A stretch of DNA of 64,000 nucleotides, taken from assembly GCA_963772865.1 (NCBI GenBank), contig CAVYZA010000034.1, positions 291,550-355,549 on the forward strand. Direction: 5' to 3'. Source of the DNA: an uncultured beta proteobacterium. Lineage in GTDB: Bacteria > Pseudomonadota > Gammaproteobacteria > Burkholderiales > SHXO01. Within the stretch, counting starts at the first letter, position 1. Each line of letters opens with the position of its first letter. Made by a program: the position numbers and the translations under genes. Below are positions 32,210 to 58,359 of this stretch, one piece after another. The notes under the pieces are model-generated. The model made no database searches. It was given only the letters and a program-made list of their open reading frames with translations, and was not told the origin of the DNA.

Positions 32210-32401
32210 GGCTCCCACCACCCCGTCACGCTGCGCGTGCCACCCCTCCTCGGGGAGGCTCCCACCACCCCGTCACGCTGCGCGTGCCACCCCTCCTCGG
32301 GGAGGCTCCCACCACCCCGTCACGCTGCGCGTGCCACCCCTCCTCGGGGAGGCTCCCACCACCCCGTCACGCTGCGCGTGCCACCCCTCCTCCGGGAGGA
32401 G
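32210..32401. repeat. Intergenic 48-bp tandem repeat x4, followed by three GC-rich hairpins (to about 32470)
   Basis: The unit ggctcccaccaccccgtcacgctgcgcgtgccacccctcctcggggag starts at 32210, 32258, 32306 and 32354. Downstream hairpins are cccctcct/aggagggg, ccccgcctc/gaggcgggg and ggcgcgc/gcgcgcc. Confidence 0.9.
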
Positions 32402-34475: not shown

Positions 34476-34491
34476 GTGTGGTGTTCCAGGC

Positions 34492-36989
<2,498 letters not shown>

Positions 36990-36993
<4 letters not shown>

Positions 36994-37520: not shown

Positions 37521-38128
37521 CCTGCAGCCGAGAACTGCTGCACGGCGTCGCCCTGCGCGCTCAGCTGCGTGGAGGCTGTTCGCCCGCTGCCCGTGTCGGC
37601 GAGCACAATGCGCAGCTCGGCTGCACGCGTCGCGGCGCTGCTTGCGGCCGCCGTGATGGTCGTAGTCGCTGCTTCGGGCGCGATCTCGCCTTGCGGCGGC
37701 GGAGCGGCCTGGCTGCTCGAGCTGTCGTCCGACTTGCCGCCGTCATCGCTCGAATCCGACCCGCCGCCACCGGGGTCTGCCGGTTTCACAACCGGCTCCG
37801 GGGGTGGTGGTGGTGGCGGCGGCGGTGGTGGCGGCGGCGGCGGTGGTGGAGGCGGCGGTGGGGCCGCGATCGTCATGCTCATCGTGAACGGGCCAACGCT
37901 CGCGCCCGCGCCATCGCTGAGCGTGAGCGTCAATCCGTCCGTCCCGCCTGCCGCACCCGTGTGAACGTAGCGCACCAGGCCGTTCGTGACATCCGCTTGC
38001 GTGAACGTGCCGTTGACTCCCAGCGGCGTGCTCGCCACGTATAGCGTGCCCGTGCTCGGAGGCACGGTCACGGTGTAGGTGAGCTGCGTCGGTCCCTCTT
38101 CTATGTCGGTCGCCTGAAGCATGCGCAC
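37406..38128 (-). CDS. Giant locus B, fragment 7 (cadherin-like domain, 21xPro, acidic/Ser-rich linker)
   Basis: LQATDIEEGPTQLTYTVTVPPSTGTLYVASTPLGVNGTFTQADVTNGLVRYVHTGAAGGTDGLTLTLSDGAG, then P21, then ADPGGGGSDSSDDGGKSDDSSSS. Confidence 0.75.
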   Translation of the reverse strand: MRMLQATDIEEGPTQLTYTVTVPPSTGTLYVASTPLGVNGTFTQADVTNGLVRYVHTGAAGGTDGLTLTLSDGAGASVGPFTMSMTIAAPPPPPPPPPPPPPPPPPPPPPEPVVKPADPGGGGSDSSDDGGKSDDSSSSQAAPPPQGEIAPEAATTTITAAASSAATRAAELRIVLADTGSGRTASTQLSAQGDAVQQFSAAGWRRLARRQPLAWKLPRSASAWQPGPESSVLAPARWKR

Positions 38129-38660
38129 CGCCGATGGTGAGCGTCCCGTGGTAACCCAGCGATCCGCCCGCTCCGAGGGTGAGCACGGGAGCGTCGTCGA
38201 CCGGGTTGACGGCGATGACCGCAGTCTGCACGGCTCCGCCCAGCCCGGTATCGCTGGCCGAGATGGAAGCCTGGACGTCGAACCTGCCGCTGGCCGTGCT
38301 GTCCGCGCTCGGCGTGAACTTCAGTCCGGCGAGCCCCTGCGCGGCACTGATGAACGCGCCGTCCGCGATCGCGGTGACGCCGTCGTTCTGATACAAGGTG
38401 CCGCCGCCGATCCCCGTGATCTTGAAGTGCGTCACCGACGCGCCGTCAGCGGCGTTGCGGATGATGACCAGCCCGGTTGTGCTTTGCGTGTCCTCGTTGG
38501 TGATCGTGCTCGTCACGGTGGGCGTGTCCGCCACCGGCGCGACGGTCACGGTGAAGGTCTGGCTGGTGAGCATTGACTCCGTCCGACACCCGCAACGTGA
38601 CGGTCGTCGTCCCGTACGTGTTAGCCAGCGGCGTGACGGTGATGGTGCGGCTCGCACCAC
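37743..38660 (-). CDS. Giant locus B, fragment 6
   Basis: The good segment reads LTSQTFTVTVAPVADTPTVTSTITNEDTQSTTGLVIIRNAADGASVTHFKITGIGGGTLYQNDGVTAIADGAFISAAQGLAGLKFTPSADSTASGRFDVQASISASD... Both ends are out of frame. Confidence 0.7.
   Translation of the reverse strand: MVRAAPSPSRRWLTRTGRRPSRCGCRTESMLTSQTFTVTVAPVADTPTVTSTITNEDTQSTTGLVIIRNAADGASVTHFKITGIGGGTLYQNDGVTAIADGAFISAAQGLAGLKFTPSADSTASGRFDVQASISASDTGLGGAVQTAVIAVNPVDDAPVLTLGAGGSLGYHGTLTIGGAHASGDRHRRGTDAAHLHRDRASEHGHAIRGEHAAGSQRHVHASGCHERPGALRSHGCGRRDGRIDAHAQRWRGRERWPVHDEHDDRGPTAASTTAAAATTAAATTTTPGAGCETGRPRWRRVGFER
37799..37861 (-). repeat. Uninterrupted run of 21 proline codons (CCN)21
   Basis: The plus strand reads cgg ggg tgg tgg tgg tgg cgg cgg cgg tgg tgg cgg cgg cgg cgg tgg tgg agg cgg cgg tgg. 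On the minus strand this is 21 consecutive Pro codons in the frame of ORF 37406..38128. Confidence 0.9.
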
Positions 38661-43804: not shown

Positions 43805-44205
43805 CGTGATGGCGCCGGTCTGGGCAGTTGATGGCGAATGCTCCGCCGGTGTTGCCGGCGGTGATCGCGTAGCTCAGCCCCGGCACGGCCGCGCCCAGCG
43901 TGATCCCTGCCGGATCCGACAGCAGGCCCGTGTGAAACGACCGTGGCCGTGCCGGTGCCGTCCAGGTTGACGCGGCGGATGCGGTCGAGGTCGTCCTCGG
44001 TCCAGTACAGCTTGCCGTGAGCGGTGTCGACCACCAGCCCGTTGATGCCGTTGCTGGTCGAGACGAAAGTCGTCACCGCCCCCGAGCCGTCCAGCGCGGC
44101 CCGACCGATCCGGCCGCCGGCCTTGTCGGCCCAGTACATCTTGTTGCCGGCCACGTCGAGCGCGATGCTCACGGGGTTGCCGATGCCGCTCACCAGCGTC
44201 TGCAT
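43753..44205 (-). CDS. Giant locus B, fragment 3 (YWTD blades 4-6)
   Basis: MQTLVSGIGNPVSIALDVAGNKMYWADKAGGRIGRAALDGSGAVTTFVSTSNGINGLVVDTAHGKLYWTEDDLDRIRRVNLDGTGTATVVS. The tail is out of frame. Confidence 0.75.
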   Translation of the reverse strand: MQTLVSGIGNPVSIALDVAGNKMYWADKAGGRIGRAALDGSGAVTTFVSTSNGINGLVVDTAHGKLYWTEDDLDRIRRVNLDGTGTATVVSHGPAVGSGRDHAGRGRAGAELRDHRRQHRRSIRHQLPRPAPSRWPTARCSTSRARPATC

Positions 44206-47200
44206 GCCCGACCCGTCCAGGTTCGCGCGTTCGCACCTGGTTGGTCCCGTCGTCCGTCCAATAGATCTTGCCGTTGACCAGATCGAGGTCGAGGCTGGTC
44301 GGGACCGACAACCCGTTCGCCGAGGTCAGCAGATCCTGCACACCGGTGCCGTCGAGATTGGCGCGCTGGATCTTGGCGGTGCCCGAGTCGGCCCAGTACA
44401 ACTTGCCGTTGGCGGAGTCCACCTTGATCGAGACCGGGGTATTCAGCCCGGATGTCACGATGGCCTGCAGGCCGCTGCCATCCAGGTTGGCGCGATAGAT
44501 CCGGTTGCTGCCCGTATCCGCGAAGTACAGTTTGCCGCCGGCATAGTCGATCGCGATCCCGGCCGGGTCGTTCAAGCCATTGATCAACGTCTCCACGCCG
44601 CTGCCGTCGAGATTCGCGCGTTTGATCTGGTTGTCGAAGTAATCGGTCCAGTAGATCTTGCTGAAGCTCTTTTCGGGATCGGGATCGACCGCGCCGACAT
44701 TCCCGACCACCGTGCCGTTAGCAGCGTTCTCGGCAACCGACAAAGTGGTCACCGACAGCATCGGCGGGAGATTCGGCGGCACGACGGTAAGGTCGAAGCT
44801 CTGCAACGTGGTGTCTGTACCGTCGAAGACGCTCAGGGTGATCGTGGCACTGCCGTACTGGCTCGCCAGGGGCGTGTAGCTGATGGTCCGGTTCGCACCT
44901 GACCCGCCCAGCGTGATGTTGGCGTTCGGCAGCAGCGTGCCGTTGCTGGAGGCCGCGGTGACAACCAGCGATGCTGGCGTGGTCTCCAGGTCACCGATCG
45001 TGAACGCGATCGGCCCGCCGCTGGAGCCCTGCGGGATCGACTGGTCGGCGATGACGCTCACGGTGGGCGCGTCGTTGACGGCAGTGACGGCGACCTGCTT
45101 GCTTGCGATGTCGCTGCCCAGTCCGTCGTTGGCGGTGAATGTAACAATGCGTGTCGCCGTGCTGGGTGCGTCGCTGCCGTTGCCGTAGCTCACGCTCCTC
45201 AGCAGCGCCTGATAGGCAGCCGCCGTTGCATTGCCGGTGAAGCTCAGCGTTCCCGTTGCGGGATTCCAGTTCGCAACGACGCCTCCGGGCAGCGCACCCG
45301 AGTTGTAGGTCAGCGTGTCCTCGCCGATCACGTAGTTGCTGGCTATGAGCGCCTGAACACTGGTCAGGGGATTGACATTGCCCGGGGCCAAGGTCAGACC
45401 GGGGTCGATAGGGGTCGCCGCGGCGTTCTCCGCATAGACCAGCGCGCCGCCGGTGGTAGTCAGGTTCGGCGGCATGTAGATCACGCTGATGAACAGCGTC
45501 GGATTGGTCAGCTTCGCCCCGCCCGACCCGGTATTTCCCTGATCGTCGACGGCGACTTGCAGGCTCGCACTGCCGGTGTAGCTGGTGTTCGGAGTGAAGA
45601 CCAGCCCGTTCAGCGCATTGTTGATGTTGGCAAGTGAGGCCGTGAAGACGATGTTGGAGGTTCCGTTCCCCACCAGCAACGACAGCCCGGTAGTGGATGC
45701 AAGCGTGGCGTTCCCGTTGGACGCGAGCAAGGTCACCCGCAGCGGCGCGCCTCCGGCGTCCACGTCGCTCACTGTGATGGCGTTGCCGTTGCCGCTCGAC
45801 AGCACCAAAGACGTATTGATTGCGGTGCTCTGCGACACCGGCAGCGCAACGCCCGGTGCATCGTTGACGGCGGTCACGCCAACTTGCCGAGCGTTGCTGA
45901 CGATGCTCGCGCCATCGTCCAGAGTAAACGTGATCGTGCGTAGCGCGGTGGCTGGGATGTCGCTCAGATTCCGGTACGTCACGCTCCTGAGCAGCGCCTC
46001 ATACTGGGCGAGCGTAGCAGTCCCGCTGAACGTCAGTGCCCCGGCAGACGCATCCCACACCGCGCCTACGCCTCCGGGAAGTACCCCGGCGTTGTAGTTC
46101 AACAGATCTTGACCGTTGACGTAGTTGCCGGTGATGTTCACCGTGGCGCCGTTCAGCACGCCCAGCGTGCCCGCGCCTATGCTCAGGCCGCCATCGACCG
46201 GCGTCGCCGGATCATTCTCGACGTAGCTGAGCGGAGTAGCGTTCACGGTCAGGGACGGCGCCGTATAGGTGACGTCGATCGCTACGCTGCTCATCGCCTG
46301 CAACGGACCCGGGCTTCCGGTGTTGCCCAGGTCGTCGGTGACGATCTGCAGGCCGCCGGCGCCGAAGAACCCGGCGTTGGGAGTGAACATCAGCCCGTCG
46401 AGCGCGTCGTTGATACCATCCGGACTGCCCCTGAAGGATAGGCTTGCGGTTCCGTTGCCGGTGACTCCGCTCAGCCCGGCGATGGTGGACAACGTGAGCG
46501 TGCCATTGACTCCGGTAAGCGTGATACCCAGCCCGCCGCCGTTCTCGTCGATGTCGCTGACTGTAATAGCGTTTCCGTTCGCGCTCGAGAACGTGAGCGG
46601 GGTGCCGCCCGGTGTGCTCTGGCTCGCGGGCACCGCGTTGACGGGCGGGTCGTTCACCGCGGCGACGTCGATGGTGAGTGTGCGGACCAGCGGGTCCAGG
46701 TCGCTGCCGCCACCGGCAGTCCCGCCGCTGTCCTGCACCTGGAACCCCAGGGTCGCATATCCCACCCCGCTGGCATTGGCAAACGGCGTGTACACCAACT
46801 TTCCGGCAAGGAGGTCCGCGACCCCGACAAAGGCGCCAGCGGTCACCGGCACCCCGTTGTTGGTCAAGGTCCCACCCCCCGGCAGGGTCGCGACCCTGAT
46901 CGCCTGGAAGCTGTCGTCCGGACCGTCCTTCGGGTCGGTGAAGCCGAAGTCGAGCACCGAGAACGCATAGGCCGTCTCCTCGCTCGTCGTCAAGGTCTTG
47001 TCCGTCCCCGCGGGCGCATCGTTCACTGAAGTGACGTTGATCAAGACCGTGCGGCTGGCAGCGAGCGGCCCGCCGCCGGTATTGCCGAGGTCATCGACCA
47101 GAATCTGTACGTCCGCCGGACCGACATAGTCGCCTGCAGCGAGGAAGCGCAGCCCGCTCAAGGCGGCGTTGATGTCGGCCACCGTGCCGGTGAAGCTCAT

Positions 47201-49615
47201 GCTGCCGGTGCCGTCGGCACCGCCGAGGAACGTCAGTCCGGTGGTCTGCAGCAGGCTCACCGTGCCGTTGGTTGCGGACAGGTTGAGCCGCACCGGGTTG
47301 CCTCCCGCATCCACGTCCCCGATGGCGATCTGGTTTCCAGTGCCGGGTGAGAACACCAGAGGCGTGTCCTCGGACGCAGTCTGAGGGCCTGGCACGATGA
47401 TGACCGGTGCATCGTTCTGCGGCGCGAGCACGATGCCGCGGGTGGCGGCTGCACTGTCAGCAATGCCGTCGTTCACCACAAAGGACACCGTGCGCGTACC
47501 GCTTGGGCTGTCGCTCAAGTTGCGGAAGGCAACGGTGCGCAAGGCGGCCTGATAGTCCGCGGGGCTCGCTGCGCCAGTCAACAACAGTGTGCCCGTCACG
47601 GCATCCCAGCTACCCGTGATCCCCAGCTGGTTCACAAAGCTCAGCTCGTCTTCGCTTTGCACGTAGCCGGCCAGAATGCGCACGCGGGCCTGGCTCAGGA
47701 TCGGATTGTCAGGATCGCTCAGGGCGAGGCCGGCATCCACCGGCGTCGCCGGCGCCCCCTCCGCATAGGCGAGGGAGGGGATGGACAGGGTGATGGTCGG
47801 CACGATGTTCGGCGACACCGTGATGGCGATCACGTCCGAGTCGGCGCGCGCTCCGCCCGATCCACTGTTGCCCTGATCGTCGGTTGCGACGGTCAGGCTC
47901 GCCGGTCCGCTGTAGTTGAAGCTCGGCGTGAACCTCAGGCCCTCGAGCGCGCCATTGAGGTTAAGCAGGGTGCCGGTGATCGTGACCGCGTTGGTTCCAT
48001 TGCCGAGCACCGAGCTCAAGCCGGTCGTGGACCCAAGCGTCAGCGTTCCGTTCGTCCCGCTCAGCGTGACCTTCAGCTCGCCGCCGCCGGCGTCGACATC
48101 GCTGACTGTAATCGCGTTGCCGCCGGCGCTCGAGAACACCCGCGGCGCGTTCTGTGCGGTCGACTGCGCGCCCGGGACGGATTGCACCGGCGCATCGTTC
48201 ACCGCGCCGAAGTCGATGGCCACCGTGCTGTTGGTGATCAGCGCCCCGCCGGTCCCGCTGTTGCCCAGATCGTTGGTGGCGATCTGGACGCTCGCGGGGC
48301 CGTTGTAGTTGGCGTTCGGATCGAAACGCAAGCCGTTGAGCGCGCTATTGATGTCGGCGATCTTGCCGGTGAAAGTCATACTCGTGTCGGCACTGCCGTC
48401 GCCGGTAACGAAGGTGAGCGCGCTGGTCTGCGCCAGCGTGAGCCGCCCGTTGGTCGCCGTAAGCGTGACCTGGATCGGCGCGGTACCGGCATCGACGTCG
48501 GAGATGACGATCTGGTTGCCGTTGCCCGCGGAAAAGACCACGGGGGCATCTTCGCTGCCGGGCTGTGTGCCTGGAACGGTGTTGACTGCGGGATCGTTGA
48601 CCGAACTGACCGCGATCTGGCGCACGGCCGCGGTACTGGTGAACCCGCCGTCGCTCGCGGTGAAGGTCACGCTGCGCGTCAGCGTGCTGGGCTTCTCGCT
48701 CGTGTTCTGGTAGGTCACGGAGCGCAGCGCAGCCTGGTAGTTGGCGACGGTCGAGACACCGGTCAGCGTCAACGTGCCGGTGGCCGAAGCCCAGGTGCCC
48801 GTAATGCCCCACGAGTTCGCGTTGTTGAAGGCGAGAAGGTCCTCGCCGCTCACATAGTTGCCGGTGATCCGCACCGTCGCGCTCACCAGGGTGGCGCTGT
48901 CCTCGTCGATCACGCTCAGACCAGAGTCCACCGGGACCGGCCCGATGCTTTCGGGGTAGGCCAGAACACTGACACTGGTCGTGACCACCGGCGGCGTCTC
49001 GATGCTGAACGCCGCCACGTAGCCGTCGAAACCACCGTTGAACGTGGTGTCGTAGCCGCTCGGCGTGATGCCGGAGGCCGACGCTGTGTTGCCGGCGACG
49101 TAGAACTTGCCGTTGGCGTAGCTGGCGGCCCAGGCGTCGTCGGCGTTGCCGCCACCGAGGTAGCTGGCATACACTCGGCCGGCGGCACCGCTGACGCTGG
49201 GGTCGAGCACCAGGACGAAGATGTCCTCGCCCCCCGCGTTGGCGGACTGGTACGCGTTGGCGGTCACGGTCAAGTTGCTGGAGGTGGTGAAGCCGCCGGC
49301 ATAGATCCGGCCCGCTGCATCCACGTCGATGCCCCAGAGCGATTCGACTCCGCTTCCGCCTACGTAGGTCGAATAGACCAGCGAAGCAGCCCCGGACGCA
49401 GCAGGGTCGACGACCGCGACGAAGCTGTCCGCGCCGCCGCTTTTGGTCCCTTGCATTGCGCTGGCGGTGACATCGAAGTTGCTGGACGAGGTATCGCCGC
49501 CGACGTAGATCTTGCCACCGGCGCCCAGAGCCAGCGTGTAGCCGAAGTCGTCGTTGCTGCCGCCCAGGAAAGTGCCATAGACGAGTCCGGTGCCTGCCGG
49601 ATTGAGCATCGCCAC
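43874..49615 (-). CDS. Giant locus B, fragment 2 (1,913 codons)
   Basis: Further SBBP-like repeats come first. Then five composite modules (..LAYPE...VD.GLS..D.D...L..A.V.I..NYV.GEDLL.F......GI.G.W....GTL.L.G......YQAALRSVTY.N.S..P....R.V.F...DG... followed by VNDAPV...PLVFS..NGN.I...DVDAG.....V.L...NGT..L). Finally YWTD blades 1-4. The good frame ends near 44235. Confidence 0.85.
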   Translation of the reverse strand: MAMLNPAGTGLVYGTFLGGSNDDFGYTLALGAGGKIYVGGDTSSSNFDVTASAMQGTKSGGADSFVAVVDPAASGAASLVYSTYVGGSGVESLWGIDVDAAGRIYAGGFTTSSNLTVTANAYQSANAGGEDIFVLVLDPSVSGAAGRVYASYLGGGNADDAWAASYANGKFYVAGNTASASGITPSGYDTTFNGGFDGYVAAFSIETPPVVTTSVSVLAYPESIGPVPVDSGLSVIDEDSATLVSATVRITGNYVSGEDLLAFNNANSWGITGTWASATGTLTLTGVSTVANYQAALRSVTYQNTSEKPSTLTRSVTFTASDGGFTSTAAVRQIAVSSVNDPAVNTVPGTQPGSEDAPVVFSAGNGNQIVISDVDAGTAPIQVTLTATNGRLTLAQTSALTFVTGDGSADTSMTFTGKIADINSALNGLRFDPNANYNGPASVQIATNDLGNSGTGGALITNSTVAIDFGAVNDAPVQSVPGAQSTAQNAPRVFSSAGGNAITVSDVDAGGGELKVTLSGTNGTLTLGSTTGLSSVLGNGTNAVTITGTLLNLNGALEGLRFTPSFNYSGPASLTVATDDQGNSGSGGARADSDVIAITVSPNIVPTITLSIPSLAYAEGAPATPVDAGLALSDPDNPILSQARVRILAGYVQSEDELSFVNQLGITGSWDAVTGTLLLTGAASPADYQAALRTVAFRNLSDSPSGTRTVSFVVNDGIADSAAATRGIVLAPQNDAPVIIVPGPQTASEDTPLVFSPGTGNQIAIGDVDAGGNPVRLNLSATNGTVSLLQTTGLTFLGGADGTGSMSFTGTVADINAALSGLRFLAAGDYVGPADVQILVDDLGNTGGGPLAASRTVLINVTSVNDAPAGTDKTLTTSEETAYAFSVLDFGFTDPKDGPDDSFQAIRVATLPGGGTLTNNGVPVTAGAFVGVADLLAGKLVYTPFANASGVGYATLGFQVQDSGGTAGGGSDLDPLVRTLTIDVAAVNDPPVNAVPASQSTPGGTPLTFSSANGNAITVSDIDENGGGLGITLTGVNGTLTLSTIAGLSGVTGNGTASLSFRGSPDGINDALDGLMFTPNAGFFGAGGLQIVTDDLGNTGSPGPLQAMSSVAIDVTYTAPSLTVNATPLSYVENDPATPVDGGLSIGAGTLGVLNGATVNITGNYVNGQDLLNYNAGVLPGGVGAVWDASAGALTFSGTATLAQYEALLRSVTYRNLSDIPATALRTITFTLDDGASIVSNARQVGVTAVNDAPGVALPVSQSTAINTSLVLSSGNGNAITVSDVDAGGAPLRVTLLASNGNATLASTTGLSLLVGNGTSNIVFTASLANINNALNGLVFTPNTSYTGSASLQVAVDDQGNTGSGGAKLTNPTLFISVIYMPPNLTTTGGALVYAENAAATPIDPGLTLAPGNVNPLTSVQALIASNYVIGEDTLTYNSGALPGGVVANWNPATGTLSFTGNATAAAYQALLRSVSYGNGSDAPSTATRIVTFTANDGLGSDIASKQVAVTAVNDAPTVSVIADQSIPQGSSGGPIAFTIGDLETTPASLVVTAASSNGTLLPNANITLGGSGANRTISYTPLASQYGSATITLSVFDGTDTTLQSFDLTVVPPNLPPMLSVTTLSVAENAANGTVVGNVGAVDPDPEKSFSKIYWTDYFDNQIKRANLDGSGVETLINGLNDPAGIAIDYAGGKLYFADTGSNRIYRANLDGSGLQAIVTSGLNTPVSIKVDSANGKLYWADSGTAKIQRANLDGTGVQDLLTSANGLSVPTSLDLDLVNGKIYWTDDGTNQVRTREPGRVGHADAGERHRQPREHRARRGRQQDVLGRQGRRPDRSGRAGRLGGGDDFRLDQQRHQRAGGRHRSRQAVLDRGRPRPHPPRQPGRHRHGHGRFTRACCRIRQGSRWARPCRG

Positions 49616-51726
49616 GAAGGCGTCGGATTTGCTGCCGCTCGAGCCGTTGGCTGCCTGATACGCATTCGGGAGCGCCGTTGTGAAGCGTGCTGGAGGTGCT
49701 CTCCCCGACCACCACGGCGTTGCCGGCAGCGCGTGACCTCCATGTTGTAGACGGCGTCGAAGCCGCTGCCGCCCAGAAACGTCGAATAGACGAGCCCGCT
49801 GCCGCTGGGATTGAACTTGGTCACGAAGGCCTCGGCGCCGGCGACGCTCGTATCGAACGCGCCCACCAACGGAAAGCCGGTCGCGTTGTTCGTATAGCCG
49901 GCCACGTAGGCGCTGCCCGAGCTGTCTACCGCAACCCCGTAGCCGATGTCCGCGTCGCCGGATCCGCCCAGAAGCGTCGAAAAGATCAGGCCTGTGCCGG
50001 AGGCGTTCAGCTTGACCAGGAAGGCGTCCTGATTTCCACCCAGCGTCGAATCGAAGGGTGAAACCAGAGTAAAATCGGACGACTTCGTATAGCCCGTAAT
50101 GTACGCGTTGCCAGCCGCGTCGACGGCCAGTCCGTAGCCCTCGTCCTCCTTGTCGCCGCCGATGTAGGTCGAGTAGATCAGGGTGCCCAGATCCGGGCTG
50201 AACTTGCTGACAAAGACATCTTTATTGTTGAGGGCGAGGGAGAAGGCGCCGACGCTGGTCGGAAAATCATTGGAGTTCGTGTAGCCGGTCACGTATACAT
50301 TGCCGGCCGCGTCCGTATCCATGTTCCAGATCTGCTCGCCGTTGCTGCCGCCGAGGTAGGTGCCGTAGGACAGGATTGGATCGATCACTAGCTGGCGCGA
50401 GGCGTCGTAGCTGCCTACTTCGAAGCCGACGCTGCCGTCCTCGAGTAGCGTGTACCGGCTGGTCACCCACTCGCGTCCGGCGGGGCCGTCCTGATAGGCG
50501 ACCGGGGCCTGAAAGGCGATGGTCTGTCCGGTCTCGCCCAGACTCAAGATGAGGTTGCCGTTGGCGTCGACGGAGACGCTCTGGGCCCCTTCGAAGCCGA
50601 AGCGAATTGCGCTGGCATCCGCGCCCGCCTTGACGATGAAGTCGTACTCGAGCTGCCGCTGGTTCCCGTAGTAGCGCAGGTCGATGCCGTCGTAGACCTC
50701 GTCGTATCGCACGGCGCCGTAGTTGGCCACGTCACGCCGCCACTGGTCCTCGCCGCCCACCAGATAGTTGCTCTTCGCCTCCAGCAGGTTCTCGCCGCTC
50801 GCCGCCGGGTCGTCGTTGGCGCCGCGCAGGTCGAGACGCACGGCATAGCCGCCGGTTTCGTTCTGCAGACCGATGACCGCGTCGCCGTCGGTCAGCCACA
50901 CCGTGTAGCCGTTGCCACGCGCGAGGAAATCGACGTCCCCGTCGCTCTGCCCGGCGTTGACCTCGAACGCGAGCGGGCTGCTCACTACGATGGGCTCGGT
51001 GGCAGTGGCGTCCGAGGTGGCAAGATCCAGCAGGCTGGCAAACTGGCTTTGCGCAGCCGTCTCCACGACCACCGGGGTATCCACCAGCCCGAGCTCGAAC
51101 TCGAGGTCCCAGTCGCCGCCAAGCTGCTGGGCGCCGGTGGGATCGGTGCTCGCCGCGACGTCGGCACCGGTCAGGCGCGCCATGGCCTCCAGCAGCGAGC
51201 GGCCTTCGGCGGAGCCGGCCACGTCGCAACCATAGATCAGCAGGTCGGCCTGCTCGGTGAGGGCATCGCCCCACGCACGAATCTTCGCCGCGTTGGCAAG
51301 CAGCGAATCGAAGTCGAGTGTCGTGCTGCCCAGCTGCACCGCGCCAGGCTCGCCGTGAGAGAGGATGTGCACCGCGTCTATATCGCTGCGGCCGGCGAGC
51401 GCCTCGCTGATCTGCTGCACGCCGTCGCGGGCCGGGTCGAGCTGAACCACCTCGATGTCGCGTTCGCTGGAGTTCTGCAGGCCTTCGACGAGCTCCCGCT
51501 GTCCCGGGGTGCTGCTGTCGACGAATACCAGCTCGTGGCGCCGGGGCTTTGCGTCGATCGTCGAATCGCTGTTGAACTCGCCGCTTGGATCGAGGGTGCG
51601 TTGCTCCGTCGCGGGTGTGAGAACAGGCGTGTCCAACCCTGCCGGCGCGAAGTCGGCAGAGTAGAGAATGCGCGGCTCGATCTCCTCGACGAGAGGGCGG
51701 CGGCGGGGCTGGGCGCGACGTTCCAT
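49360..51726 (-). CDS. Giant locus B, fragment 1 (leader, DUF4347, SBBP-like propeller repeats)
   Basis: Starts MERRAQPRRRPLVEEIEPRILYSADFAPA. The DUF4347 block reads HELVFVDSSTPG...VHILSHGEPGAVQLG...LLIYGCDVAGS...GADVAASTDPTGAQQLGGDWDLE. Repeats of the form YLGG...G.AVD..GN.YVTGYT.S.DFP follow. The good frame ends near 49735. Confidence 0.85.
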   Translation of the reverse strand: MERRAQPRRRPLVEEIEPRILYSADFAPAGLDTPVLTPATEQRTLDPSGEFNSDSTIDAKPRRHELVFVDSSTPGQRELVEGLQNSSERDIEVVQLDPARDGVQQISEALAGRSDIDAVHILSHGEPGAVQLGSTTLDFDSLLANAAKIRAWGDALTEQADLLIYGCDVAGSAEGRSLLEAMARLTGADVAASTDPTGAQQLGGDWDLEFELGLVDTPVVVETAAQSQFASLLDLATSDATATEPIVVSSPLAFEVNAGQSDGDVDFLARGNGYTVWLTDGDAVIGLQNETGGYAVRLDLRGANDDPAASGENLLEAKSNYLVGGEDQWRRDVANYGAVRYDEVYDGIDLRYYGNQRQLEYDFIVKAGADASAIRFGFEGAQSVSVDANGNLILSLGETGQTIAFQAPVAYQDGPAGREWVTSRYTLLEDGSVGFEVGSYDASRQLVIDPILSYGTYLGGSNGEQIWNMDTDAAGNVYVTGYTNSNDFPTSVGAFSLALNNKDVFVSKFSPDLGTLIYSTYIGGDKEDEGYGLAVDAAGNAYITGYTKSSDFTLVSPFDSTLGGNQDAFLVKLNASGTGLIFSTLLGGSGDADIGYGVAVDSSGSAYVAGYTNNATGFPLVGAFDTSVAGAEAFVTKFNPSGSGLVYSTFLGGSGFDAVYNMEVTRCRQRRGGRGEHLQHASQRRSRMRIRQPTARAAANPTPSWRCSIRQAPDSSMALSWAAATTTSATRWLWAPVARSTSAAIPRPATSMSPPAQCKGPKAAARTASSRSSTLLRPGLLRWSIRPT

Positions 51727-51902
51727 TCACAAATGCCAACGCAGAACCCGTGCCCGTGCCAGCACAGACGGCATGCCGCCGGTCGCCGTTTACGTTGTTT
51801 GACGTTGTGCTTGCCGCGCCTGCAGGCTGCCCAGACGAAGCACAGCATCGCGGATGCAAACGTCATGTCAGGGCATTGTCAAAGCGTGACACTCCTCTTG
51901 AC

Positions 51903-52030
51903 GGGAGAGGGCTGGGGTGAGGGTGAACTGCGCGCGACGCAGCCCCCTCTCCCTACCCTCTCCCGCGAGGGGAGAGGGACCTTTCTGTCTGGCCCTCACC
52001 CTACCCTCTCCCGCAAGCGGGAGAGGGACC
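51903..52030. repeat. REP-like intergenic palindromic elements (three related copies)
   Basis: ccctaccctctcccgcgaggggagagggacc and ccctaccctctcccgcaagcgggagagggacc are direct copies with internal 7-9-bp hairpins. gggagagggctggggtgagggtg is present in inverted orientation. Confidence 0.7.
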
Positions 52031-52055
52031 TTTCCGTTCTTTGCCGAAGCCGCGG

Positions 52056-54038
52056 CTATTCGCCGCGGCCGGCAAAGGACAGGCGGGCTTCGCTGTTGCG
52101 GTCCTGCTTGAGGAGCAGCTTGCGCTGTGCACGATGGCGGCGCTCCTCCTGCCGCTGCGGGAGGCGCGCGAGGAACGCCCCGAACCGCGCGGGCACCAGG
52201 CGGCGCGCGCCAGCCAGCGCGATCGCCGTGCTGCGCAAGGGCGCCGGCAGGGAGCGGGCGAGCAGCCCGTCCTGCAGGCTGAGCACCGTCTCGACGCTGC
52301 CCGGATCGCCCTGGCGAGCGGCGCGGCCGTGCAGCTGCCGGTCGATGCGCGGGGAGCTGTTGTGCTGGCAGCAGATCACGTGCAGGCCGCCACGCTCGGC
52401 CACGCCCGGCGCCAGCGGGATGTCGGTACCGCGGCCGGCCATGTTGGTGGTGACGGTGACGCGGCCGGCCTCGCCGGCGCGCGCGACCATCGCGGCTTCC
52501 TCGCTGTCCTGGCGCGCGTTGAGCACCTGATGCTCGATGCATGCCGCCGCGAACCGGATGCTGAGCTGATCGCTGTCGGCGACCGAATCCGTGCCGATGA
52601 GCACCGGCCGCCGCGCCTGCTGCAGCTCGCGCACGCGCTCGACGACCGCCTGCCACTTGTCCTCGCCGGTGACGAACACACGCATGCCCAGATTGCGGCG
52701 CTGCGACGGTCTTGCGCAGCGGCACGCGCTGCACGCGCAGGCCGTACACGCTCTCGAGCTCCGCCCGAGCTTCGGTGAGGGTCCCGCTCATTCCGCACAA
52801 TCGCAGATAGCGCGGGAAGAAGCGCTGATAGGTGATCTGCGCGATGGTTTCCATCTCGCCACTGGGCGGGCAGCCTTCTTTTTCTTCCAGCAGTTGCTGC
52901 AGTCCGCGCGACCACACCCGGCCCGGCGCCACACGCCCGGTGGTCTGGTCGATCATCAGGATCTTGCGATCGCGCACCAGGTAGTGCTGATCGCGGAACA
53001 GCAGATGATGGGCCACCAGCGCCGAGACCGACGATCTCGTCGCGGTGGCGGCGGTCCTGCCAAAGCCCGCCCATGCCCTTGGCCCGCTCGACCAGGAGCG
53101 TGCGTCCGGCGCCCGTCAGCTCGGCCTGCTGAGTCGAGGGATCGAGACGAAAATCGCGGCCCGGAACGAGGTGCAAAGCGATGCGCAACGCTTCCTGGAC
53201 ATAGGCCTGCTGCTGCGGGTTCACGCGCGGTTGCGACAGGATGAGCGGGGTGCGCGCTTCGTCGATCAGGATGCTGTCTGCCTCGTCTACCAATGCCATC
53301 CACAACCCGCGCAGCAGCAGCCCGCTCGACTCGGCCTGACCGGTTTCGAGGTGACGCACGCGGTCGTGCAGCTCGCTGGGCAGGTGTCGCCGCACCAGAC
53401 GGTCGCGCAGATAGTCGAAGGTCAGCTCCTTGGCGGTACAGTAGGCGATGTCGGCGCCGTAGGCAGCACGGCGTTGAGCCTGATCCAGCGGGCGCGTCAC
53501 CGCGCCCACGGTCAGCCCCAGCAGGCGATAGACCGGGCCGAGGTGGGCTGCGTCGCGATCCACCAGGTAGTCGTTGGAGGTGACGACGTGTACCGGCGTG
53601 CCGGCCAGTGCCGCAGTGGCTGCCGCGACCGCGGCGGCCAGGGTCTTCCCCTCGCCGGTGGCCATTTCCGCCAGACGGTTGCCGAGCATGATGCGTGCAG
53701 CGATGAGCTGAGTGTGAAACTGCTGCATGCCCAGCGCTCGCGAGGTCGCCTCGCGCACCAGCGCGAAGGCTGCCGCCATTGCCGGGTCGGTGAAGCCCTC
53801 GGCGCCGAGGTTGGCACGCACCTCCCGTACGCGCGCCGCAAAGGCAGATGCGGACAGTCCGCGCGCGTCCTTGGAATGCGTGTCTACCGCGTCGAGGAAC
53901 TGTTGCTGGCGGCGTTGGCCGAGCGCGCGCGGCAGCTCCCAACCCGAGTAGGGTCGCGCAGCGTGGTCGCCTGTCGTGGCTGCGCTCCGGATAGGGACCC
54001 AGCGCCGTCGCGCGGCTGGACAGGACGGCCGCTCGCAT
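52056..54038 (-). pseudogene. SecA-family ATPase paralogue (~660 codons, short form), interrupted by at least two 1-nt frame changes
   Basis: SecA motifs are spread over three frames: MATGEGKTL and LVDEADSILIDEARTPLI (ORF 52376..53821); HHLLFRDQHYLVRDRKILMIDQTTGRV (ORF 51868..53016); TNMAGRGTDI and RIDRQLHGRAARQGDPG (ORF 52056..52685). The shifts are near 53028 (gtcGgtctcg) and near 52712. The N-terminal start is unresolved (53821 GTG, or further upstream to 54038). Confidence 0.8.
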
Positions 54039-54140
54039 GCCGCTTGCGATCCCCGCTAGCCCGGGCAGCTCATGCGCGCCGCGCGCGAGCCAGGCTCGGC
54101 GGCAGATGCTTCGGCGGCGCCTTCACGGACTGGTCTGGCC

Positions 54141-56285
54141 TCAGCTCTGCGGATTGAACTGCTTGAGGAAGAGCTGCAGCAGCCGGCGTTGCCACTGGAT
54201 GGCCAGCGGGCTGGCACCGTGATCGAAACGCACCCAGACCCTGCCACCCACGCGCTGCAGCGGCGTCGCCGTGACTCGCACGTCGAACAGGAACACCGGC
54301 TCCAGGGTACGCGTGCCCTGATTGTCGGCGGGGTCGGTCACGACAGGACCGCCGGAACGGTCACCGAGCGCCGCGGTAGGCAGGATCGCGGTCGCCGCAG
54401 GCACCTCGCCGGTGAGCGCCGCGCTGATGGCCTCGCCCGGCTGATCGGCAAGGCTCACCGCCACAGCGCGGGTGCTGGTGCGGATGATGCCGGCGTCCTG
54501 CTGCGGCACCGCGACCTTCACGCTGATGTCTTCGCTGCGCAACACATGGGCGATGACGGCCCCGCGCGCCAGATAGCTCCCTGGCAGGTCCTGGGCTCGC
54601 GGCATCACCAGCTTGCCTTCGACCTGACTGGTAACTTGCAGGGCTGTCAGCCGCCGCTGGGTTTCCTTCAGCTCCTCACGCGTCGCATCGGCCTCTTCCC
54701 GAATCGACGCAGCGCGGCCGGCGTTCACGTCCAGCATCTGGTTGTACTCGATGTCCAGTGCGCTCAAGCGCGCCTGCACCGCGGCGTGCTTGGCCACCAG
54801 ATCGGGATCGCTCAAGGTGACCAGGAGGTCGCCGGGCTTGACCAGCTGGCCGTCCTGCGCGTGCACCTGTTCGACGAAGCCGCCGGTCTCAGCGCGCACG
54901 CGAGCCTTCTCGGGCAACCAGACCACGCCTTGGGCCATGGTCGAGAACGGGACCGGCAGCACGTACAGCGCCACCAGCGTCGCGACTGCGATGCCGCTCG
55001 CAATCGCATAGGCACGCGAGCGGCTGCGGGCCAGCTGCGGCGCGGTGCGCAAGAACTGCATGACATTGTGCAAGGGCTTGAGCACCATCCCGACCGCGAT
55101 GAACAGGCCTGCCGCGACGCCGAGCCAGAAGGAGTAGGCGCCGGCCCAAAGCACGATCAGGATGGAGACGAACCAGCGATACGCGAACGACAGCACCGCG
55201 TAGCACAGCAGCAGCATCGGCTCGCCCTTGGCGGTCACCGGTGAGGTCGCGTCGTGCACCTTCAGCAGATAGCGTTGCGCCAGGTAAGCCACATACTGGT
55301 TGCTGCGTGGGCCCAGGTTGGGCACGTCGAGCACGTCCGACAGCACGTAGTAGCCGTCGAACCGCAGCAGCGGGTTGCCGTTGAACAGCACGGTGGAGAC
55401 GCCGCCGATCACCATGACCACGAAGCACATCTGGCGCACCAGGCCGTCTTCGACGTTCAGCCAGACAAACAGAGCCAGCGCCGCCAGGAACAGCTCGACC
55501 ATGATGCCGGCCGCGCCGACCAGCGCGCGCCGGTGCTTCTCCGGAAACGCCGAGGCCGCCGAAGCATCGACGAACGGCACCGGAACCAGGAGCAGCAGGC
55601 TGATGCCGGTCTCGCGCACCTCGCCGCCCCAGGCTTTCACCGTCAGTCCATGACCCAGCTCGTGCACCACTTTGACGAGCGGATACATGATCCACATGAG
55701 CAGCAGGAATTCGGGCGTGAGCATGTGGACCGAAGCGAAAGCCCGGATCGGCGCCCAGTTCGTGCCGACCGACAACAACCCGAGTACCACCACCACCGCC
55801 CAAGCTGCCAGCGCCACCGGGTGGACCAGCGCGCGGCCGACCGGCGCGAGCCGCTCGAGCATCTTGTCGGGGTCGAACAAGGTCACGCGGAACGCCAGCG
55901 GATTGAGCATGGCGATGCGGCGCTTGCGGTTCTTCTCGAACCGCCGCCGGAACAGCTCGGCGACATTGGGCGTGATCTCACACTGCAGCAGATCGTTGTC
56001 GCTCAGCTGGCAGAGGATCTCGATGGTTTCGTCCTGGGTCGGCGTGTTCTCGCCGAGCTTGTTGAGCAGCGAGTGCCAGATCTCGTCGGTCGAACGCTTG
56101 CCGTCCATGCGACCGATGAAGTGGAACGTGTTCTCGTCGACCCGATGATGGCGGCCGGTGCTGGTGTCCTGCAGCAGGTACCAGGCCTGGTCGCGGTAGA
56201 CGTGGCGCGACACACGCACGTGACTGCGCAGGCGCGGGTGAATTCCGGCGACGCGGTACCAGCGGGAGGAGAAGAGGGAATCCAT
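54141..56285 (-). CDS. Fusion protein: PqqD-like N-terminal domain + M50 (site-2-protease) intramembrane metalloprotease + HlyD-type periplasmic adaptor
   Basis: 714 aa. HExxH reads VVHELGHGLTV and the second S2P motif reads FNGNPLLRFDGYYVL, set within multiple TM helices. The C-terminal ~300 aa have a lipoyl-hairpin/coiled-coil/barrel pattern (GGFVEQVHAQDGQLVKPGDLLVTL...EGKLVMP). The N-terminal ~100 aa (..AWYLLQDTSTGRHHRVDENTFHFIGRMDGKRSTDEIWHSL..) resemble PqqD by eye. Confidence 0.8.
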   Translation of the reverse strand: MDSLFSSRWYRVAGIHPRLRSHVRVSRHVYRDQAWYLLQDTSTGRHHRVDENTFHFIGRMDGKRSTDEIWHSLLNKLGENTPTQDETIEILCQLSDNDLLQCEITPNVAELFRRRFEKNRKRRIAMLNPLAFRVTLFDPDKMLERLAPVGRALVHPVALAAWAVVVVLGLLSVGTNWAPIRAFASVHMLTPEFLLLMWIMYPLVKVVHELGHGLTVKAWGGEVRETGISLLLLVPVPFVDASAASAFPEKHRRALVGAAGIMVELFLAALALFVWLNVEDGLVRQMCFVVMVIGGVSTVLFNGNPLLRFDGYYVLSDVLDVPNLGPRSNQYVAYLAQRYLLKVHDATSPVTAKGEPMLLLCYAVLSFAYRWFVSILIVLWAGAYSFWLGVAAGLFIAVGMVLKPLHNVMQFLRTAPQLARSRSRAYAIASGIAVATLVALYVLPVPFSTMAQGVVWLPEKARVRAETGGFVEQVHAQDGQLVKPGDLLVTLSDPDLVAKHAAVQARLSALDIEYNQMLDVNAGRAASIREEADATREELKETQRRLTALQVTSQVEGKLVMPRAQDLPGSYLARGAVIAHVLRSEDISVKVAVPQQDAGIIRTSTRAVAVSLADQPGEAISAALTGEVPAATAILPTAALGDRSGGPVVTDPADNQGTRTLEPVFLFDVRVTATPLQRVGGRVWVRFDHGASPLAIQWQRRLLQLFLKQFNPQS

Positions 56286-56427
56286 AGTCTCAGGGGCTAG
56301 GGGCTAGGGACTGGAGGCTAGGCGAGAGGGTCTGAGGCTTGGCGCTTGGAACTGACGTGACCAACGCTGCACACCTGTGGCGGACAGTCACGGCAGGCGT
56401 GAGGCCACTCGGTCACTGCTTCCTGGA

Positions 56428-58359
56428 TCACCCGATCCACGACCACACCATCAGGCGCAGCCAGCCGTACACGCGGTGGGTGAGGATCCACAGCAGCGAG
56501 CGCGAGCCGGCCTCGATCTTGGCCACGCCCATCAAGCCCGGCCGCAGCTCGGCGTCCTTGACCTGGAGCTTCGCCTCGACCTCGAAGTAGTTGCGGCCCT
56601 GCCCGGCGGTGGCCACGGGCGTGATGCGATCCACCACCAGGGGGCGTGCATCCCCGGGCAGCGCGGTGAGCGCCAGGCTGCCGGGCTGTCCGGTGTGAAC
56701 ATCGCCGACGTCGCGCTCGTCGACCTCGACGATGACGCGGAAATCGTGCTCGGGCGCGAGCGTCATCAGGGAATCGCCCTTCTTGACCGGTGCACCCAGG
56801 GTTTGCGTGAGGTCTCCGGTGATCACAATGCCGTCGAAGGGGGCCGTGAGCTTTACGCGCTGGAGCTGGATCTCCGTCAACTGCTGTTGCGCGCGCGCCT
56901 CTTCCAGCTTGGCGAAGATGATGCCGACCTCGGTACGGTCCTGCTTGGTCAGCGCGGCGCCGTAGGAGCTCTCAAGCTGCGCGACCGCGCTCTGCGCCTT
57001 GCGCTGCTCCAGCTTCAAGTCCTCGTCGGCCAGCTCGGCCAGCAGCTGGCCGGCCTTGACGCGGTCTCCAGGGCGCACGTACGCCTGCTTGAGATAGCCG
57101 TCGCCGGGTGCCACCATGACGCGCTGGATCGAGCCTTCCAGGCGGGCAGGCGCGCTGACCCGGTAGTCGCCGGGAATGAAGGCAGCGGCAATCAGCGCGA
57201 CCAGCGCTGAACCCACGCCAATCTTGAGTGCGCGGTGGCCGGGACCGAACAGCGGAGCCACCGCTTCGCCCAGCGCGCTCACGATCTTCAGCGGCCACGG
57301 CCGGTCGGACGCATGCTTGCGCTCGATCAAGGGGCCGAGCAGCGCACCGATGTTCTCGCACAGCGTGAACTCGGTGCGGGTCAGTTGCTCGGTCCGATTG
57401 CGCTCGAACATCATCGCGCCGACGGCTTTGCCATTCTTCACCAGCAGCACCGTGCAGATCGCCTGTGCACCGTGGCGCTGGGCGAGCGTGGTATGCGCTC
57501 GATCCACGCGCGGCTGTGCGCCCTCGGGCTGCGGGAACAGCAAGGTGGAGCCCTGCCAGATGGTCTCTTCCATGGCGGCGCCGATATCGCGCAGCAGGCC
57601 CTGGTTGGCCTTGAATTCGGTGCTGTGCGACAGGGCGTGCACCTTGACGTGGCGGCGCCCCATGAGACCCACGCTCACACGGTCGCAGGCAAAGATCTCC
57701 GCCAGCTCGGTGGCGAAGGCCCCGGCGCCCGCCGTGAAGTCGTCGTGCGCCTCGATAGTCGCCAGCAGATGCAGCAGGCGCACCGAGTTGGGCGCCGGCA
57801 TTTCCTGGGTCTTGTCCGGATCGTTGTGCGCACCGGACGGCGCTTTGAGGGTCGCGGCAGGCATGGGCTGAGGAACCGAAGGAATGGATCGGGCCGGAAA
57901 TTGCGGAGTAGATGCGGTGGATGCGTAGTTCTGCGCGGCTGCGCTGGCAGCGGCCTTCGCCGCTGGCAAGCTGGAGCGCATCGATGCTTCGAAGCTCTCG
58001 GCACCGCGCTGCAGGCTGGTGACGGCCGCCTGGGACGGCTGCGCCATCTGCGGGCTGAGCAGCACCGCGAGCGCACCGATGGTCTTGCCCTTGACCTGCA
58101 GCGGGCAGGAGATCAGCGGCCCGACCGGCGTAGGGCGTTCGGCGCCGTTCAGCCGGTCCTGCGCTTGCGTTTGCTGGCGCTCGAAGGCGACCTTGGCGGC
58201 GTCTTCCAGCTCCTGCGTGGCGCGCCCGCCCGGCGGCCAGGACGCTGCGGAGGACAGACCGCCGTCGCGGCGCGATGCAAGCATCACGACGCCACGGGTG
58301 GCGCCGTTGATCTGGCCGCACTGGCTCTCGAGCCAGTCCTGGATGACCGTCTGCTGCAT
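56428..58359 (-). CDS. GAF-domain + TM + HlyD-type periplasmic adaptor protein
   Basis: 643 aa. The cytoplasmic N-terminus has GAF-like segments (FATELAEIFACDRVSVGL...AICTVLLVKNGKAVGAMMFER). The TM helix is IGVGSALVALIAAAFI. The HlyD pattern follows (GYLKQAYVRPGDRVKAGQLLAEL, coiled coil, LTAPFDGIVI). There is a C-terminal hydrophobic helix. Confidence 0.8.
   Translation of the reverse strand: MQQTVIQDWLESQCGQINGATRGVVMLASRRDGGLSSAASWPPGGRATQELEDAAKVAFERQQTQAQDRLNGAERPTPVGPLISCPLQVKGKTIGALAVLLSPQMAQPSQAAVTSLQRGAESFEASMRSSLPAAKAAASAAAQNYASTASTPQFPARSIPSVPQPMPAATLKAPSGAHNDPDKTQEMPAPNSVRLLHLLATIEAHDDFTAGAGAFATELAEIFACDRVSVGLMGRRHVKVHALSHSTEFKANQGLLRDIGAAMEETIWQGSTLLFPQPEGAQPRVDRAHTTLAQRHGAQAICTVLLVKNGKAVGAMMFERNRTEQLTRTEFTLCENIGALLGPLIERKHASDRPWPLKIVSALGEAVAPLFGPGHRALKIGVGSALVALIAAAFIPGDYRVSAPARLEGSIQRVMVAPGDGYLKQAYVRPGDRVKAGQLLAELADEDLKLEQRKAQSAVAQLESSYGAALTKQDRTEVGIIFAKLEEARAQQQLTEIQLQRVKLTAPFDGIVITGDLTQTLGAPVKKGDSLMTLAPEHDFRVIVEVDERDVGDVHTGQPGSLALTALPGDARPLVVDRITPVATAGQGRNYFEVEAKLQVKDAELRPGLMGVAKIEAGSRSLLWILTHRVYGWLRLMVWSWIG

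Follow-up and report, generated by a model that had tools for sequence, protein, structure and literature searches.

A conserved gene cassette combining a short SecA-like ATPase, a leader-binding site-2-protease fusion and HlyD-type adaptors as a candidate export apparatus for LEPR-XLL giant proteins

A 64,000-nucleotide stretch of contig CAVYZA010000034.1 from an uncultured beta proteobacterium (assembly GCA_963772865.1, forward-strand positions 291,550 to 355,549; hereafter the window) was analysed computationally. It contains two loci for giant proteins, A and B, and a conserved gene cassette. We interpret the cassette, on sequence evidence, as a dedicated apparatus that spans the envelope and, in a leader-dependent way, exports and processes giant surface proteins with an N-terminal LEPR-XLL motif, and put the probability of this reading at about 0.6. 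In its full form the cassette reads (DUF3467) - GAF/HlyD - RRE-M50-HlyD - short SecA-like ATPase - small HlyD - (TolC), where RRE is a recognition element for peptides that are made on ribosomes and modified after translation (RiPPs). The domain identities of the proteins, the invariance of the catalytic motifs, the gene order across phyla and the linkage to LEPR-XLL giants are established by the observations given below. An initial annotation of the window had proposed export and processing of the giants by three consecutive genes. The computational tests that were run support this interpretation, under which secretion, leader binding and cleavage are inferred. The three genes are real and belong to a larger cassette, which includes the small HlyD and, in other lineages, DUF3467 and TolC. 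The cassette genes of the window are as follows.

56428..58359, minus strand: GAF/HlyD protein; intact open reading frame (ORF) of 643 aa with a cytoplasmic N-terminal region, a transmembrane (TM) helix and a periplasmic adaptor (PAP/HlyD).
54141..56285, minus strand: RRE-M50-HlyD fusion; intact ORF of 714 aa with a leader-binding domain, a polytopic site-2-protease-like core and a periplasmic adaptor.
52056..54038, minus strand: short SecA paralogue with nucleotide-binding domain 1 (NBD1), preprotein cross-linking domain (PPXD) and NBD2; broken by three +1 insertions, corrected frame 659 aa.
31215..32153, minus strand: small HlyD-type periplasmic adaptor (Pfam HlyD_D23, 5.7e-22; RND_mfp 145.9 bits, above cutoff).

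Composition and gene order of the cassette

More than 6300 proteins of near-constant length (714-716 aa) make up the M50/HlyD family, and relatives were found in at least 588 species-representative genomes of several phyla. Culturable carriers include Piscinibacter sakaiensis 201-F6, Uliginosibacterium flavum KACC 17644, Methylosinus sp. C49, Thioclava pacifica DSM 10166 and Marinobacterium rhizophilum DSM 18822. Synteny was followed in 80 fetched loci (designated by L numbers) from alpha-, beta-, gamma- and deltaproteobacteria, Myxococcota, Nitrospira, Rokubacteria and Omnitrophota. The genes lie on the same strand in a conserved order: GAF/HlyD, RRE-M50/HlyD, SecA-like, small HlyD. The GAF/HlyD gene is located directly upstream of the M50/HlyD gene in all 65 testable loci. 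The SecA-like gene follows M50/HlyD in 61 of 63 loci, 59 of them detected automatically and two, L026 and L069, containing one-base gene overlaps. The small HlyD gene is present in 50 of 61 testable loci, in 46 of which it stands directly after the SecA-like gene. Loci without an in-place small HlyD are mostly the nearest relatives of the window. This matches the window itself, where this fourth cassette gene is displaced to a position upstream of giant A.

Of the 32 fully flanked loci, 25 by automatic detection, and 27 after inspection of L061 and L039, have a giant ORF directly downstream or upstream of the cassette. The linkage extends across phyla and occurs in both gene orders. Thus the association with giants expected in the initial annotation is borne out in about 27 of 32 loci; the linked feature is the LEPR-XLL motif and not, as had been supposed, DUF4347. 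Together, the domain matches (E to 1e-71) and the gene order shared between phyla are far beyond chance.

All-against-all clustering of the proteins encoded in the 10-kb flanks of the 80 cassettes revealed no other widely recurrent family, and therefore no ATP-binding cassette (ABC) transporter, SecY or RiPP enzymes are linked to the cassette. The window ORFs scanned and the clustered flanks contained no member of the SecY, SecY2 or Asp families.

In some lineages two further genes accompany the cassette. At least 19 loci encode, immediately upstream of GAF/HlyD, a DUF3467 protein of about 90-105 aa (for example, L084 11735..12055, L085 11854..12135, L040, L044, L050, L052, L063, L065, L072 and L078). 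Its carriers are alpha-, gamma- and deltaproteobacterial, Nitrospira, Rokubacteria and Omnitrophota cassettes, and it is absent from the betaproteobacterial type to which the window belongs. No solved homologue of DUF3467 was found by sequence, and a literature search returned nothing useful on it. In Nitrospira (L052, L048), Omnitrophota (L071), Sulfuritalea (L074) and on a Methylosinus plasmid (L084), the cassette itself includes a TolC-family gene. In the window, no OEP match was obtained in Pfam-scanned ORFs and no tblastn match to two TolC-family queries. A SapC-family gene was also seen in or beside the cassette in five loci (L061 12218..13072, L023, L031, L076 and L081).

The protease fusion, the SecA-like protein and the adaptors

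The second cassette gene had been annotated as a PqqD/RRE-like domain followed by an M50 protease with both catalytic motifs and a HlyD-type adaptor. The intact ORF, the motifs and the profile and fold matches all agree with this assignment, and the three parts of the fusion were delimited as follows.

55980..56237, minus strand: PqqD-like RRE; fusion aa 17-102, beta-beta-beta-alpha-alpha-alpha.
54951..55868, minus strand: M50 (site-2 protease) membrane core; fusion aa 140-445, from motif residues, Pfam, hydropathy and DSSP.
54144..54950, minus strand: HlyD/membrane fusion protein periplasmic adaptor domain; fusion aa 446-714, from Pfam and Foldseek.

At E<=0.01 no Pfam PqqD match was reported for the window fusion itself, and 44 of 59 members of the fusion family match this model. 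A profile built from fusion aa 1-135 matched Xanthomonas PqqD (3G2B) over the full length of the latter with an E-value of 1.2e-5; the next matches were PqqD 5SXY and the lasso-peptide RRE TfuB1. In an AlphaFold2 (AF2) model (pLDDT 80) the N-terminal domain has a beta3-alpha3 winged-helix topology. The best Foldseek matches of this domain were the leader-peptide-bound lasso RREs TbiB1 and TfuB1 (target TM-score up to 0.77); the TruD and LynD RREs came next. Because the PqqD profile matches, the modelled topology and the Foldseek matches coincide, the N-terminal domain is, by sequence and predicted fold, a RiPP recognition element. The PqqD/RRE fold first suggested for it was thus recovered by Pfam at the family level, by the 3G2B profile and by Foldseek.

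The Pfam Peptidase_M50 model (PF02163) scored 24.1 bits with the window fusion, compared to a gathering score of 27.2; at E<=0.01 it matched 57 of 59 family members (best 9.9e-8). Among the domains named in the initial annotation, GAF, HlyD and SecA were therefore clear in profile searches of the window proteins, while Peptidase_M50 was sub-threshold and PqqD unreported there, both becoming clear at the family level. The HELGHG and NPLLRFDGYY motifs occupy aa 208-213 and 304-313 of the fusion. H208, E209, H212, N304, P305 and D310 are invariant across 59 homologues and G311 is kept in at least 90% of them; the protease is therefore probably active. A hydropathy scan revealed eight hydrophobic segments, which we read as seven TM helices and a re-entrant beta-hairpin, in agreement with DSSP. 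With seven TM segments, the RRE is predicted to be cytoplasmic and the adaptor periplasmic.

The adaptor part of the fusion matches Pfam HlyD_D23 and HlyD_3 (aa 461-624). In the full-length AF2 model (mean pLDDT 83) the C-terminal third folds like MexA, AcrA, MacA and EmrA (Foldseek, E down to 7e-12), with an alpha-hairpin at 494-547. Foldseek with the full-length model returned adaptor proteins only and was uninformative on the M50 core.

The best NCBIfam match of the fusion is the daptide intramembrane metalloprotease (daptide_HExxH, NF041824; fusion aa 17-412), weaker ones being the YydH/LiaK epipeptide protease and the NHLP bacteriocin HlyD. The Prokaryotic Genome Annotation Pipeline (PGAP) labels the homologues 'PqqD family peptide modification chaperone'. 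These matches and this label are what would be expected if the cassette matured and exported a RiPP-type or other small peptide and the giants were incidental neighbours. All these NCBIfam scores, however, are well short of the family cutoffs (174.7 bits against 300 for the daptide model). Neither modifying enzymes nor short precursor genes recur in the 80 loci, and no short ORF with a LEPR motif lies beside any fetched cassette; the single regular-expression match, about 8 kb upstream in L010, is weak and probably due to chance. The linkage to giants, on the other hand, holds across phyla and in both gene orders. We therefore consider a peptide-maturation function highly improbable, and a RiPP cluster as such was ruled out, there being no motif-bearing precursor-like short ORF beside any cassette and no modifying enzymes.

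The pieces of the SecA-like frame matched Pfam SecA_DEAD (9.1e-71), SecA_PP_bind (6.3e-13) and P-loop_SecA (1.6e-46). The protein aligns only to residues 51-570 of the 841-residue Bacillus subtilis SecA, that is, to NBD1, the preprotein cross-linking domain and NBD2. Another 40 or so residues come after the SecA-homologous part, and a two-helix finger, a wing domain and a C-terminal tail are missing. A SecA_SW domain is missing from all of the 120 best homologues (650-665 aa). The three pieces together scored about 460 bits against NCBIfam SecA models, whose equivalog cutoffs are 725-1493. By these comparisons the protein is a member of an old, conserved family of 650-665-aa SecA paralogues under purifying selection. 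A decayed copy of housekeeping secA, which the initial annotation had considered, was ruled out: the length is constant at 650-665 aa across phyla, the ratio of nonsynonymous to synonymous substitution rates (dN/dS) is 0.095, and relatives with 84-98% DNA identity carry an intact copy.

PGAP labels on the cassette genes include 'efflux RND transporter periplasmic adaptor subunit', 'DEAD/DEAH box helicase' and even 'prepilin peptidase'. The last is the RefSeq label of the SecA-like gene of Methylosinus sp. C49 (L084 16213..18129; NZ_AP022333.1, WP_244635385.1) and looks like a mis-annotation, because the translation contains a SecA Walker A motif (MDTGEGKT).

All the SecA motifs quoted in the initial annotation are present in the window, but 52056..54038 is not one ORF and is split over three frames. 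Alignment to intact orthologues in L001, L002 and L083 located three +1 single-base insertions, at ~53973, 53022/53023 and 52707-52710; L001 and L002 are metagenome contigs with synteny identical to the window and intact 659-aa orthologues. The three insertions leave the total length a multiple of three, which is why the gene had looked like one of about 660 codons. With the insertions removed, an uninterrupted 659-aa frame without stop codon is obtained, 89.5% identical to L001. The dN/dS of the corrected gene (0.095) falls within the range of its intact neighbours (0.05-0.125), and all three genes, with values of 0.075-0.125, are under purifying selection.

About 15 frame changes were counted in the window, at sites that include ~53973, 53022, 52707, 49735, 44232, 43933, 43825, 41600, 38600, 38100, 37500, 23480, 16600 and 14900. 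The SecA-like gene and the two giants hold all of them, and the other ~31 kb is free of such changes. Uniform sequencing error would not predict such clustering in functionally linked genes, and the system could be dead in this genome, with the SecA-like gene and both giants as genuine pseudogenes decaying together. The nature of the changes argues otherwise. The six for which alignment gave a resolution are all +1 insertions outside homopolymers, and ORF coordinates imply +1 in 13 of ~15; this bias is a technical rather than a mutational signature. Contig L083, 98.1% identical to the window over 22 kb, has an intact SecA-like gene that lacks exactly the three extra bases. It has 34 extra-base events of its own in the housekeeping liv, amidase and ABC genes, all of which are intact in the window. 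The corrected SecA-like gene is free of stop codons, with a dN/dS like that of the intact neighbours. Because +1 insertions are patchy in two independent assemblies of one species and selection is not relaxed, sequencing or assembly error is most likely the source of the frame changes in the SecA-like gene, and joint decay through real, very recent inactivation is quite unlikely.

The 329-bp spacer 51727..52055 separates the stop codon of the SecA-like gene from the beginning of giant B and is the most indel-rich stretch between the window and L083. It contains two G+C-rich palindromes of the CCCTCTCCCGC-N-GCGGGAGAGGG type, which look like repetitive extragenic palindromic (REP) elements or terminators.

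In the GAF/HlyD protein the GAF domain was located at aa 216-347 (Pfam E 1.6e-10) and the adaptor at aa 417-609 (HlyD_3 6.5e-19, HlyD_D23 9.8e-16). A hydropathy scan found a single TM segment, aa 377-395. The GAF, TM and HlyD parts annotated at first are thus present, and the second, C-terminal TM helix is not supported. The small HlyD had been assigned to 31215..32054. It is indeed an adaptor; its ORF runs from 31215 to 32153, and position 32054 corresponds to Met34, the probable start, which opens a signal-peptide-like N-terminus. A 47-bp tandem unit in ~4 copies with 99% identity was seen at 32209..32399, between the small HlyD and the REC-GGDEF-EAL genes.

The LEPR-XLL giants and their surroundings

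The presumed substrates and their terminal elements are located as follows.

36990..51726, minus strand: giant locus B, presumed substrate; LEPR-XLL-type leader, DUF4347, DUF7948, SBBP, cadherin/Ig-like repeats, C-terminal anchor; ~8 frame changes.
13566..30341, minus strand: giant locus A, second presumed substrate; LEPR-XLL leader, DUF4347-like N-terminus, repeats, Cadherin_3, C-terminal anchor; ~3 frame changes.
51640..51726, minus strand: N-terminal leader of giant B, MERRAQPRRRPLVEEIEPRILYSADFAPA; basic stretch, then LEPR-type motif (aa 13-29), proposed RRE ligand.
37179..37319, minus strand: hydrophobic anchor at the C-terminal end of giant B, with an acidic tail after it; the giant A equivalent is 13869..13988.

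Both giants open with a basic stretch followed by EEIEPRILYSADFAP. The NCBIfam LEPR-XLL model NF012209 (cutoff 17 bits) gave 19.6 bits for giant A, 22.6 for the L008 giant and 16.4 for giant B, whose core motif is identical. The motif [basic]-x-x-E-E-[LI]-E-P-R-[IL]-L-[YF]-S-A-D was found 10-20 residues from the start on every captured N-terminus of a cassette-adjacent giant. Giants located upstream of a cassette have no DUF4347 match and still carry it. Examples are two plasmid giants of 10,603 aa and 8,847 aa: a 31.8-kb Pontibrevibacter gene labelled 'LEPR-XLL domain-containing protein' by PGAP, with the start ...LDPMEPRVLLSAD, and a 26.5-kb gene of Methylosinus pMSC49a, with the start ...FDTLEPRVLLNAD. 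Since giants without DUF4347 also have the motif, the universal partner of the cassette, as judged from these sequences, is the LEPR-XLL leader and not DUF4347.

At the other end, the giants carry a hydrophobic segment of ~30 aa with an internal R-G-G, followed by P-A-W-[RH]-x-[IV]-D-P-[LM]-P-[IV]-[LV] and an acidic tail. This element also ends L008 14027..20824 and L022 8306..13960. It was detected in 3767 representative proteins by an exhaustive HMMER search and is the extreme C-terminus in every full-length protein among the 150 matches listed. It has no Pfam or NCBIfam match or model. The element could be a membrane anchor and a site-2-protease substrate. Just before it, giant B contains 22 consecutive prolines and a Ser/Asp/Gly-rich linker (37406..38128, minus strand).

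No HemolysinCabind match was obtained in the C-terminal ORF pieces of the window giants, which gave Cadherin_3 or no Pfam match, in line with the absence of repeats-in-toxin (RTX) sequences noted at first. An Rfam scan of the whole window at gathering score found no riboswitch or other RNA, including upstream of the giants.

The interval between the giant loci contains the genes of a REC-GGDEF-EAL protein and of a PAS hybrid histidine kinase that includes Hpt (32649..34475 and 34492..36993). Sensor kinase and response regulator genes like those of 32649..36993 recur in ~15 related loci. The position of kinase and GGDEF genes by the giants, together with this recurrence, suggests that the giants are under cyclic di-GMP (c-di-GMP) or two-component control. 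Giant A is followed by a PAS-GGDEF cyclase gene, 12000..13532, which scores 57.7 bits against a LapD cutoff of 1020. The scanned window ORFs included neither LapD nor LapG, a periplasmic C93 cysteine protease. The 901-aa product of 3217..5922 (minus strand), which has DUF3857 and a transglutaminase-like core, is not LapG-like by family.

The initial annotation had listed no SecY, TolC or C39/type I ABC component in the window. None turned up in the scans, but one ABC exporter is present (9180..11078). It is the only one in the window, MsbA-like, without a C39 domain, 40 kb away and unlinked to cassettes elsewhere. A hidden type I ABC partner was therefore ruled out, this exporter being MsbA-like and not conserved near cassettes.

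The anchor and the regulatory genes bear on the main rival explanation, namely that the giants cross by Sec or by classical type I secretion and stay tethered by their anchor or leader, while the cassette is a device for regulated intramembrane proteolysis. M50 would cut the anchor helix, the SecA-like ATPase would extract or unfold the stub, and GAF and c-di-GMP would set the timing, by analogy with the action of LapG/LapD on LapA. Such a role would fit the conserved C-terminal hydrophobic segment with its helix-breaking R-G-G, which is typical of site-2-protease substrates, the RTX repeats on some LEPR-XLL giants, the recurrent GGDEF/EAL and sensor-kinase genes, and the GAF sensor domain fused to an adaptor. 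However, three periplasmic adaptors, and TolC in some cassettes, are hard to square with a purely proteolytic device. The kept preprotein-binding domain of SecA points to long unfolded chains, the C-terminal anchor varies between lineages while the LEPR leader is universal, and no type I ABC gene is linked. We regard this explanation as unlikely, though it is the one to be weighed most seriously.

Proposed mechanism and relation to known systems

In the export reading, the cytoplasmic RRE would recruit the nascent or unfolded giant by taking up its short basic LEPR leader as an added beta-strand. RREs bind RiPP leaders in the same fashion. The SecA-like motor, which has kept the NBDs and the preprotein clamp and lost the SecY-docking parts, would then feed the chain through an inner-membrane platform built of the M50 cores and the adaptor anchors. 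The three HlyD-type adaptors would form a periplasmic conduit to a TolC-family channel, presumably encoded elsewhere in this genome. The M50 active site may cut either the leader or the conserved C-terminal anchor helix, and the GAF domain and the neighbouring c-di-GMP and two-component genes may gate export. A precedent is the M50 protease EpeP, which is thought to both cleave and export its peptide (PMC10885120).

Several observations weigh against this reading. No protein-conducting inner-membrane channel was identified among the cassette parts. RTX repeats, a hallmark of classical type I substrates, are present in LEPR-XLL giants of some relatives (L052, L060), and their occurrence in some LEPR-XLL giants is also on record (PMC10868602). 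The hydrophobic anchor at the end of the window giants could be a sign that they are retained in the inner membrane and not released. TolC is unlinked in the window and in most proteobacterial loci. A few cassettes (L012, L015 and L071) have no SecA-like gene, with L012 and L071 as true absences, and the SecA-like gene of the window is frameshifted as sequenced. Five fully flanked loci (L010, L037, L040, L044 and L059) have no giant within 10 kb. To our knowledge, M50 proteases are not protein conductors, and we know of no way for a SecA without the two-helix finger to push a chain.

Type I and peptidase-containing ABC transporter (PCAT) systems and the Lap/Sii exporters of giant adhesins resemble the cassette in having HlyD adaptors with an alpha-hairpin, a TolC-family factor (here in some cassettes) and giant repetitive adhesin-like substrates. 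The PCAT peptidase, attached to the exporter, also recognises and cuts an N-terminal leader. Unlike type I systems, the cassette has a SecA-paralogue ATPase in place of an ABC transporter and three distinct adaptors, two of them fused to other modules, and its presumed signal is the N-terminal LEPR-XLL and not a C-terminal signal or a GG-leader. Unlike that of PCATs, its peptidase is an intramembrane M50 with an RRE and not C39. In function, the cassette would come closest to a peptidase-containing ABC exporter plus HlyD and TolC, put together anew from parts that are not homologous.

In the accessory Sec system (SecA2/SecY2-Asp) of Gram-positive serine-rich adhesins, a SecA paralogue with conserved NBD1, PPXD and NBD2 is likewise encoded next to the giant that it presumably serves. 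The cassette differs in having no SecY2, Asp or glycosyltransferase genes, in the lack of the two-helix finger, wing and C-terminal tail from its SecA-like protein, and in its diderm host, periplasmic adaptors and TolC. The RRE-M50 leader peptidases of the daptide (NF041824) and EpeP/YydH types share the PqqD-like RRE and polytopic HExxH core over fusion aa 17-412. In contrast to them, the fusion scores below the cutoff, is joined to HlyD, has no precursor or modifying genes beside it, and its presumed substrate is thousands of residues long.

In Omnitrophota and Actinobacteria, giant proteins with built-in SecA DEAD and preprotein-binding domains have been described, and a role in giant export was suggested for these domains; the cassette is not described in that work (West-Roberts et al., bioRxiv 10.1101/2023.11.21.568195). 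In both cases a SecA motor without scaffold and wing is tied to giant proteins, but the motor of the cassette is a separate 659-aa protein with M50 and HlyD partners. The LEPR-XLL family NF012209 describes the same motif as that of all cassette-linked giants examined, and differs in that the model names the motif only. In the papers and annotation names examined, no machinery was linked to LEPR-XLL.

A full-text search, with subscription-only literature outside its reach, found no description of the cassette, in line with the initial statement that no characterised system has this composition. Because membership fails for type I, Sec/accessory Sec and RiPP systems and the literature has no description, we rate the cassette, which is known here from sequence, as lying outside the known kinds of system. 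At what we judge to be even odds, it represents a new diderm secretion type, in which the ABC, resistance-nodulation-division (RND) or major facilitator superfamily (MFS) engine gives way to a SecA-derived ATPase and a leader-reading site-2-protease/adaptor fusion, and LEPR-XLL giants of up to ~10,000 residues are handled in Proteobacteria, Nitrospirota, Myxococcota, Rokubacteria and Omnitrophota.

We know of few routes (type I, accessory Sec and type V) by which proteins of 5,000-10,000 residues are exported to the surface. If the export reading is true, LEPR-XLL giants would have a secretion route, and tripartite envelope-spanning systems a fourth kind of engine. RRE domains would read leaders on whole proteins and not on small peptides alone, and the system would parallel the SecA domains inside Omnitrophota giants. 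Annotation of the cassette genes, which are now generically or wrongly named, could also be improved. Culturable carriers exist, and the idea is thus directly testable.

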